A stretch of 37,205 nucleotides of DNA from a virus (Duplodnaviria > Heunggongvirae > Uroviricota > Caudoviricetes): the IMG/VR virus record IMGVR_UViG_2721755652_000006; one strand, written 5' to 3'. Below the pieces are notes generated by a model. That model was not told where the DNA came from, searched no databases, and saw nothing but the letters and a program-made list of their open reading frames with translations. Both the position numbers and the translations under genes were made by a program. Numbering within the stretch: position 1 is the stretch's first letter; every line of letters begins with the position of its first letter. Positions 1,473-2,297 of this stretch are shown one piece after another.

Positions 1473-2297
1473 ATGCTGAGAAATGCAGTATTGAATTTAT
1501 CAATTTTTCACCAGCTTCTGGTCTTTCTGGCTGTCATGCGCAAAACATATGGCTTTAATAAAAAACTGGATTGGGTTAGCAACGAGCAACTTTCCGAATT
1601 AACCGGGATATTGCCGCACAAGTGTTCTGCTGCAAAAAGTGTTCTGGTAAAGCGTGGGATTTTTATTCAGAGCGGGCGGAATACCGGCATTAATAATGTG
1701 GTCAGTGAATGGTCAACATTACCCGAATCAGGTAAGAAAAATAAAGTTTACCTGAAAGAGGTAAATTTACCTGAATCAGGTAAAAAAAGTTTACCCAAAT
1801 CAGGTAAAGGCGTTTACCCGAATCAGGTAAACACAAAAGACAAACTAACAAAAGACAATATAAAACCTTTTTCGTCCGAGAATTCTGGCGAATCCTCTGA
1901 CCAACCAGAAAACGATCTTCCTGTGGTGAAACCGGATGCTGCAATTCAGAGCGGCAGCAAGTGGGGGACAGCAGAAGACCTGACCGCCGCAGAGTGGATG
2001 TTTGACATGGTGAAGACCATCGCGCCATCAGCCAGAAAACCGAATTTTGCAGGGTGGGCTAACGATATCCGCCTGATGCGTGAACGTGACGGACGTAACC
2101 ACCGCGACATGTGCGTGCTGTTCCGCTGGGCATGCCAGGACAACTTCTGGTCCGGTAACGTGCTAAGTCCGGCCAAACTCCGCGACAAGTGGACCCAGCT
2201 CGAAATCAACCGTAACAAGCAACAGGCAGGCATGATAGCCAGCAAACCAAAACTCGACCTGACAAACACTGACTGGATTTACGGGGTGGATTTATGA
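1473..2297 (+). CDS. O: Replication initiator O (lambda O-like C-terminal two thirds; N-terminus non-homologous or truncated)
   Basis: From about residue 120, the C-terminal portion (…NDLPVVKPDAAIQSGSKWGTAEDLTAAEWMFDMVKT…WIYGVDL) matches lambda O as I recall it; the iteron array lies inside the gene; stop overlaps the P start (ATGA). Confidence 0.85.
   Translation: MLRNAVLNLSIFHQLLVFLAVMRKTYGFNKKLDWVSNEQLSELTGILPHKCSAAKSVLVKRGIFIQSGRNTGINNVVSEWSTLPESGKKNKVYLKEVNLPESGKKSLPKSGKGVYPNQVNTKDKLTKDNIKPFSSENSGESSDQPENDLPVVKPDAAIQSGSKWGTAEDLTAAEWMFDMVKTIAPSARKPNFAGWANDIRLMRERDGRNHRDMCVLFRWACQDNFWSGNVLSPAKLRDKWTQLEINRNKQQAGMIASKPKLDLTNTDWIYGVDL
1719..1830. repeat. Five 17-bp iterons TTACC(C/T)(G/A)AA(T/A)(C/G)AGGTAA with internal dyad symmetry, followed by an A-rich tract (about 1831-1875): ori-lambda-like origin inside O
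   Basis: Direct repeats read at 1719-1735, 1748-1764, 1767-1783, 1791-1807 and 1814-1830; each is TTACC…GGTAA; an A-rich region follows. Confidence 0.8.

Follow-up and report, generated by a model that had tools for sequence, protein, structure and literature searches.

A lambda-type replication origin, very probably silent, in the truncated O gene of prophage Sp8 of Escherichia coli O157:H7

Our analysis revealed what is very probably the cis-acting origin of a common lambdoid replication module, intact as DNA but orphaned by a deletion and silent in this prophage. Every testable cis-acting feature of a lambda-type origin was found; as a self-sufficient replicon, the locus lacks two defining features, a complete initiator in cis and an early promoter. 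The origin type and the defective prophage are both known already, and the system is not of a new kind.

The window, that is, the whole stretch of 37,205 nt analysed here, is the Sp8 prophage of E. coli O157:H7, adjacent to icd. Many E. coli O157:H7 chromosomes match window positions 1100–3300 at 100% identity, and the icd-integrated prophage of O157:H7 is Sp8 (PMC8190617). In an annotated O157:H7 example, the gene order is icd, integrase and excisionase (both on the minus strand), the O pseudogene, P, ren, emrE, and a ybcK-type recombinase, with the nin/rusA/Q block, the genes for lysis, and a complete lambda-like set of head and tail genes further downstream. In the window, the integrase of the icd-integrated prophage (1–1143) and the excisionase (1133–1369) are on the minus strand, and this int/xis block (1–1369) now directly adjoins the truncated O gene, O′. 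Downstream of O lies an intact lambda-type helicase-loader gene, P (2294–2995, plus strand; 233 aa), identified by annotation and Pfam (PF06992, E = 9.5e-62). The window shares with Sp8 of strain Sakai the icd site, the gene content, and the defects: both lack CI/Cro and the recombination genes and have int, xis, and the full morphogenesis set. It differs in carrying a 2.4-kb group II intron in tail gene U, which is absent from the reference Sp8.

Iteron array and A-rich tract

Five copies of TTACCYGAATCAGGTAA, each with 0–2 mismatches, start at positions 1719, 1748, 1767, 1791, and 1814, with start-to-start spacings of 29, 19, 24, and 23 bp. A motif search with TTACCYGAATCAGGTAA on both strands of all 37,205 nt, with up to three mismatches allowed, returned no match outside the five-iteron array. 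The 10 strand-matches observed compare with a mean of 0.08 and a maximum of 2 in shuffled sequences; the dyad symmetry of the motif gives each iteron a match on either strand. The same repeat families were recovered by a repeat finder, and the search of Rfam gave no match in the ori region. The half-site layout is TTACC-N7-GGTAA, and the copies, when extended to 19 nt, are self-complementary at 14–18 of 19 positions. The array thus comprises five dyad-symmetric iterons of 17–19 bp with a phasing of about two helical turns.

Iteron 1 (1719–1735; TTACCCGAATCAGGTAA) is an extra upstream copy, 29 bp ahead of iteron 2, and is read in frame 0 as LPESGK; Klebsiella phage GZ7 and the intact O of PhiR34_1 have it at the same position and spacing. 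The other four are positional counterparts of the lambda iterons. Iteron 2 (1748–1764; TTACCTGAAAGAGGTAA) corresponds to ITN1 and iteron 5 (1814–1830; TTACCCGAATCAGGTAA) to ITN4, and these two are read in frame 2 as VYLKEVN and VYPNQVN, respectively. Iteron 3 (1767–1783; TTACCTGAATCAGGTAA), the counterpart of ITN2, is read as LPESGK and is the best palindrome of the array, matching at 18 of 19 positions when extended, while iteron 4 (1791–1807; TTACCCAAATCAGGTAA), the counterpart of ITN3, is read as LPKSGK.

Directly 3′ of the last iteron lies an easily melted, A/T-rich, strand-asymmetric tract (1831–1868, plus strand; ACACAAAAGACAAACTAACAAAAGACAATATAAAACCT), which aligns to the AT-rich unwinding element of ori-lambda. 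Its 38 nt consist of 24 A, 4 T, 2 G, and 8 C (63% A). According to nearest-neighbour energies, the least stable 40-mers of the ORF are those of the ori segment, at about −44 kcal/mol against a window mean of −56.3 ± 4.7, which places them in the lowest ~1%. Tracts of the ACACAAAAGACA type follow the last iteron in P22, HK97, mEpX1, P27, a Providencia phage, and Sf101. Reading of the sequence together with the lambda alignment also identified, at 1875–1900, a homologue of the imperfect palindrome that lies to the right of the AT-rich tract in lambda (TCCGAG...CTCTGA here, TCAGAG...CTCTGA in lambda). The initial annotation had described five 17-bp dyad-symmetric iterons at irregular spacing followed by an A-rich segment, in the layout of ori-lambda with a distinct iteron sequence, and our results bear out this description: the sites (1719–1830) and then the A-rich tract lie inside O, and the TTACC-N7-GGTAA iteron is distinct from the TCCCTC type of lambda.

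The same annotation stated that the iterons encode a repetitive LPESGKK/PKSGKG linker in O, which raises the alternative that the repeats are a protein-coding repeat only, forming a flexible linker with no role as DNA. The iterons indeed fall in a linker predicted to be disordered (pLDDT below 50 after residue 150), and LP(E/K)SGK is encoded by three of them. However, these are iterons 1, 3, and 4 only; in iterons 2 and 5 the same 17-mer is read in another frame and gives unrelated peptides, so the statement about the linker holds for three of the five copies. The retention of one motif in two reading frames indicates that selection acts on the DNA motif. The repeats are, moreover, dyad-symmetric, and their position and phasing match the experimentally defined iterons of lambda and the annotated origin of P22. 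Their arms are conserved while the coding spacers vary: comparison of the window with Klebsiella phage GZ7 gives substitutions at 1 of 50 arm positions and at 12 of 27 spacer positions (Fisher p = 5e-6). On the basis of the two reading frames and of arm-versus-spacer conservation, we rejected the coding-only interpretation, the probability of which we consider virtually nil; the repeats are constrained as DNA, beyond the coding sequence.

Comparison with phages of matching O N-domain, which had been proposed as a check, showed no difference from intact same-type phages in the array, its spacing, or the A-rich tract, with the exception of one inter-iteron base in Lambda_4C10. The 29/19/24/23 layout is retained even in Klebsiella phage GZ7 and in E. 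coli ST540, where the N-domain is ~69% identical, the C-terminal half is different, O is 284 aa long, and the loader is annotated as DnaC/DnaI-type (GZ7) or as an ATP-binding protein (ST540). In strain 141, the truncated and the intact copies of O differ at 22 of 789 nt and at none of the 85 iteron positions. Spacing or sequence that was not conserved in homologous O genes had been named as the observation that would speak for a mere coding repeat, and both proved to be conserved.

The deletion junction and the O pseudogene

The O′ pseudogene (1509–2297, plus strand) corresponds to codons 78–339 of a 339-aa lambdoid O, as indicated by the PGAP call, alignments, Pfam, and a structure model. RefSeq/PGAP already annotates it as a pseudogene, “replication protein, incomplete, missing N-terminus”. 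Of the O protein, it still encodes the canonical winged-helix core, the linker specified by the iterons, and a C-terminal half resembling that of lambda. The 12 codons that open the mechanical 274-aa ORF (1473–1508, plus strand; MLRNAVLNLSIF) are non-native, and their source is intergenic DNA upstream of xis. Base-by-base comparison placed the deletion junction at 1508–1510: the left parent matches up to 1509 and the right parent, O, from 1509 onward, with a single C of microhomology shared by the two. On the left, window positions 1144–1509 match the region next to xis in other intact phages at 99.7% identity, as far as the point where a DUF4222 gene ends, and the parent is the intergenic region between xis and this gene. 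On the right, the 339-aa O proteins of the free phages PhiR34_1 and Lambda_4C10 are 96% and 94% identical to the window ORF, respectively, with homology starting at 1509, which is codon 78.

In Lambda_2E9, ~8 kb separate the two junction points and contain exo, bet, gam, kil, the immunity region, cro, and a cII-like gene; this early region, including pR, is absent from the window. A single deletion in the ancestor of Sp8 has cost the locus its recombination genes and immunity region, pR, cII, and oop/pO, together with codons 1–77 of O. What is left of the intergenic DNA upstream of xis (1370–1508) is without a sigma-70-like promoter, and an AT-rich, terminator-like hairpin with a T-run lies at 1463–1510 on the plus strand. 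The fused junction was found in 296 of 5,426 complete E. coli genomes, all of them, among those listed, O157:H7, and every other genome with a match to the junction-spanning query breaks exactly at window position 1509, which points to one ancestral event. A figure of 977 genomes was rejected as a count of the deletion allele, because O′-P-ren alone makes up 81% of the query that produced it; the figure of 296 comes from the junction-spanning query. We attribute the intactness of the array to the youth of the deletion, as the flanking DNA is likewise ~100% identical among O157 genomes.

The initial annotation referred to an “altered O N-terminus” and asked whether O can still bind its own iterons. 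The alteration is a 5′ truncation by deletion at codon 78, with foreign intergenic DNA as the first 12 codons, and the question loses its object, since the iterons match an intact 339-aa O found elsewhere and the local O is a promoter-less pseudogene. The idea of a variant N-terminus that had co-evolved with variant iterons was likewise rejected, as the 12 upstream codons are foreign and the junction is exact.

The truncation leaves no complete initiator gene in cis: codons 1–77 are absent, and PF04492, which matches residues 51–145 of the intact O over profile positions 1–95, matches the window ORF over positions 28–95 of 95 only. A sequence search of the PDB with O gave no match. A first AlphaFold model, of full-length O, was confident in the C-terminal half only (N-domain pLDDT ~40–55), while a second, of a 176-aa N-domain representative with 31 diverse sequences, reached a pLDDT of 74–92 at residues 60–148 and predicted helices at 59–73, 77–91, 102–109, and 113–125 and a beta-hairpin at 129–138. 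Foldseek matches to this model were all winged-helix DNA-binding domains (CRP/FNR, MarR, ArsR), although weak (best E = 6e-3), and support the fold class alone and not a specific relative. Lost with the deletion are the helix at 59–73 and 14 N-domain columns out of the 31 that are invariant or nearly so, V52, R61, and N64 among them; the modelled winged-helix core, from the helix at 77–91 through the wing at 129–138, is kept in O′ together with the whole C-terminal half. Iteron binding by a hypothetical truncated product is, according to the model, unlikely.

It could nevertheless be argued that expression of the 274-aa ORF (1473–2297) yields a working initiator with a remodelled N-terminus, which still drives the local origin. 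The ORF is ATG-initiated and open through the junction, it keeps the winged-helix core, the wing, and the P-interacting half, and the replication genes of Sp8 have been listed as apparently functional (PMC2669165). Against this, 27 of the 95 PF04492 positions are missing, as are the helix and the conserved columns mentioned above, and Sp8 did not replicate in experiment (PMC2669165). Expression of the ORF is itself doubtful: only a weak GAGA-type Shine-Dalgarno sequence precedes its ATG, PGAP calls it a pseudogene, and no promoter-like site was found in 1100–2400 against 1.3 expected by chance in a crude consensus scan, which weak or non-sigma-70 transcription could escape. The early promoter is lacking at the level of gene order as well, as the cI-cro-cII region is deleted and int/xis adjoin O′. 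We therefore regard a remodelled initiator as extremely unlikely.

Relation to other lambdoid origins

Type-specific recognition between O and ori is established knowledge, and each of the ten O types that we compared had a distinct iteron sequence, located immediately 3′ of the part encoding the PF04492 domain. This domain ends at residue 145 in an intact O of the window type, and iteron 1 begins at codon 148; the array therefore lies inside a Phage_rep_O (PF04492) gene directly 3′ of its DNA-binding domain, and the iterons of lambda, P22, HK97, mEpX1, P27, and HK225 are placed equally. The iteron sequence co-varies with the N-domain type among the ten O types: at 97–100% or 69% N-domain identity the iteron is kept, at 58–67% the half-site is kept and its spacing changed, and at 46% (lambda) the iteron is different. 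DNA homology resumes at 1821, inside iteron 5, with the O gene of lambda/434, and at 1831 with SfI and VT1-Sakai. The N-domain and the iterons form one exchangeable module, and a second consists of the A-rich tract together with P and the C-terminal half of O. Such a division is the classical view of type-specific O–ori recognition (PMC8022706).

Compared with ori-lambda, the window origin has the same location inside O directly after the DNA-binding domain, dyad-symmetric iterons of ~18–19 bp, and a homologous A-rich tract, with ~80–90% identity starting at the last iteron; the two also have in common the right-hand palindrome, the O C-terminal half, P, and ren. The last four iterons are phased 19/24/23 in the window compared with 20/24/23 in lambda, a phasing that lambda has in common with P22, HK97, and a Providencia phage. 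In contrast, the iteron is TTACC-N7-GGTAA in the window and TCCCTC-N5/6-GAGGGA in lambda, the window has one extra iteron 29 bp upstream, the N-domain is ~46% identical, and, in the window, O is truncated and pR deleted. The closest other N-domains (58–67% identical) are those of the P22 gene 18 origin and Providencia phage PSTNGR2lys, which share the TTACC/GGTAA half-sites and a related A-rich tract. Their half-sites are separated by 5 bp instead of 7 bp, however, and they have four iterons with 20/24/23 phasing; the P22 initiator, in addition, is paired with a DnaB-type helicase (gene 12) and not with P.

The nin region of the window is DLP12/phage-82-like (emrE, ybcK, rusA), which suggests a possible link to phage 82; phage 82 was not among the phage records matching the O/ori segment of the window, and our literature search yielded no matching description of ori82 or of the iteron sequence of the window. 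Lambda-type origins with more than four iterons occur in the Stx phages 933W and P27, which have six. Their iterons are of the lambda sequence type, whereas that of the window differs and has a single extra copy set apart by 29 bp. In the six-iteron origins, four iterons are strongly bound in vitro and the extra ones still matter in vivo (PMC7466680), which provides a precedent for iteron 1 as an accessory site.

The five-iteron array with 29/19/24/23 spacing is identical or nearly so in PhiR34_1, Lambda_4C10, 4A7, Perceval, Turner, the mlrA prophage of strain 141, and GZ7. These intact same-type phages and prophages differ from the window in having a full O of 339 aa (284 aa in GZ7 and ST540) and a complete cI-cro-cII-like region upstream. 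A literature search on the comparator phages brought up no useful description, and we take them to be viable solely because they are deposited as complete genomes of phages for which hosts are named. The array was present in 2,451 of 5,426 complete E. coli genomes (~45%) and a matching N-terminal O segment in 2,285, and 15 phage records contained the same array together with a full-length O.

State of the origin in Sp8

By analogy with lambda, dimers of the 339-aa O of an intact phage would bind the dyad iterons through their N-terminal winged-helix domain, an O-some would assemble and destabilise the adjacent A-rich tract, and the lambda-like C-terminal half of O would recruit P-DnaB; firing would also need rightward transcription from pR. 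We infer both O binding to these iterons and unwinding at the A-rich tract from the lambda paradigm of initiation (PMC3985674, PMC7466680). As ori-lambda depends on transcription from pR even with O and P provided in trans (PMC3985674), an origin that lacks both a cognate initiator in cis and any transcription to activate it is expected to be silent. The origin is almost certainly inert in cis.

The expected silence agrees with experiment. Sp8, which is without CI/Cro, showed no circularization, replication, or packaging in the presence or absence of mitomycin C (PMC2669165), while the in-silico table of the same study scores it as “Replication +” and O and P are called “apparently functional”. 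Replication is thus listed as conserved, whereas O is truncated. The truncation corrects the “Replication +” entry and explains the negative result for Sp8 replication.

Two further explanations assign the orphan array an activity that depends on O from elsewhere. The origin could be fired in trans by the cognate O and P of another resident prophage or of a superinfecting phage, with replication of icd-Sp8 in situ. Cattle strain 141 has both the truncated Sp8 O′ (3,091,867–3,092,655) and an intact 339-aa O, the latter with P and a repressor in a prophage at mlrA/yehV (1,785,732–1,787,449), and all five iterons are identical between the two copies. Other O157:H7 strains also have the N-terminal O segment or two copies of the array, and the induced O157 prophages Sp5 and Sp15 replicate neighbouring DNA regionally (PMC2669165). 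However, the need of lambda-type origins for local transcription persists with O and P in trans (PMC3985674), and the window has no promoter-like site upstream and a terminator-like hairpin just before the junction. Many O157:H7 genomes, moreover, have a single array copy and hence no cognate O, and Sp8 DNA in Sakai was not amplified after mitomycin C (PMC2669165), which would tell against firing in trans provided that Sakai has a cognate O. Firing in trans is conceivable but quite unlikely, and the lack of local transcription speaks against its being efficient.

Alternatively, the array might act as a decoy that titrates or “handcuffs” the O of incoming same-type phages and gives the host partial exclusion. 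Lambda replication is blocked by multicopy plasmids carrying ori-lambda (PMC4488673), and E. coli very commonly harbours phages of the same replication type. Such precedents come from multicopy plasmids, however, and a single chromosomal copy with five sites is unlikely to titrate O; the effect described in PMC3349717 furthermore required an intact, transcribed oop, which is deleted here. A decoy function is therefore very improbable, and we favor an intact but orphaned and silent origin.

Much of the value of these results is that of clean-up, as the feature is a standard lambdoid origin and the local O pseudogene was already flagged by RefSeq. The truncation of O nevertheless supplies a simple molecular reason why Sp8 failed to replicate experimentally despite its published in-silico score. 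As a by-product, the analysis reveals an O subfamily that keeps the TTACC/GGTAA half-site and varies the half-site spacing (7 bp here, 5 bp in P22), which could be used for studies of initiator specificity. The orphan origin and a cognate initiator occur together in some O157 strains, which makes trans-activation testable. There is a small chance that, in strains such as 141, induction of the mlrA/yehV prophage could fire the Sp8 origin in trans, or that the orphan iterons could sequester the O of a co-resident or incoming phage. If firing in trans took place, the icd-Sp8 region, with its complete packaging and morphogenesis genes, would be amplified in situ; in either case, the “dead” origin would be a strain-dependent player in prophage–prophage interaction.

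The Sp8 O gene and the published scoring of replication

In an in silico survey of the Sakai prophages (PMC2669165, Table 1), Sp8 was scored as "Replication +", and its O and P genes were termed apparently functional. Contrary to this scoring, codons 1-77 and the promoter are missing from the Sp8 O gene (O', window 1509-2297). The truncation and the promoter loss agree with the experiment reported in the same paper, in which Sp8 was negative for replication. The retained xis-side DNA contains, directly 5' of the deletion junction, a terminator-like structure on the plus strand (1463-1510): an AT-rich hairpin with 16 pairs, then a T-run.

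Both forms of O occur on the single chromosome of E. coli strain 141 (NZ_CP028614.1): the truncated Sp8 O' adjoins icd (L016:26868-27656), and an intact cognate O-P module is located in a prophage at mlrA/yehV (L015:12001-13718; L015 and L016 are stretches of this chromosome). All five iterons are identical between the two copies, and their P proteins agree at 230 of 234 aligned positions. The mlrA prophage also carries, between a kil-like gene and the repressor, a gene for a SIR2-family protein (L015:8695-10296); this SIR2 gene may be defence-type cargo.

The emrE region and an intron in a tail gene

After ren, the window carries emrE, an SMR multidrug efflux gene (3362-3694), and a gene for a ybcK-type serine recombinase of 508 aa (3939-5465). 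This order is common to the window and the free phages PhiR34_1 and Lambda_4C10; since these phages have the same arrangement, emrE is carried by presumably viable lambdoid phages.

Comparison with Sp8 of strain 2017C-4109 revealed approximately 2.4 kb of extra DNA in the window (20523-22923). This insertion is a group II intron, as demonstrated by matches to Rfam RF02012 (22723-22869) and RF00029 (20521-20597) and by a 574-aa intron ORF (20594-22318), all on the minus strand. The intron interrupts the gene for minor tail protein U. Because it is antisense to U, it is unable to splice from the U mRNA; thus, the U gene should be inactivated. The final part of the window matches Rfam IS009 (36967-37165, 229 bits); the match corresponds to positions 35118-35316 of the comparison stretch L005, within its annotated tail fibre assembly gene (L005 34775-35356).

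Iteron recombination and half-site spacing

In E. coli CREC7837 (L018:1501-1648), a 23-bp deletion has fused iteron 4 to iteron 5 and so reduced the array to four iterons; the O gene of this strain is frameshifted, with IS elements adjoining. This array is a natural case of iteron-iteron recombination.

Apart from its own type, the O N-domains nearest to that of the window are those of P22 and Providencia phage PSTNGR2lys, at 58-67% identity. The iterons of both phages (P22, L007:1562-1706; PSTNGR2lys, L008) have the same TTACC/GGTAA half-sites as those of the window (1719-1830), whereas the half-sites are separated by 5 bp in the two phages and by 7 bp in the window. This sequence comparison suggests that specificity in this O subfamily may have shifted via half-site spacing, not half-site sequence.
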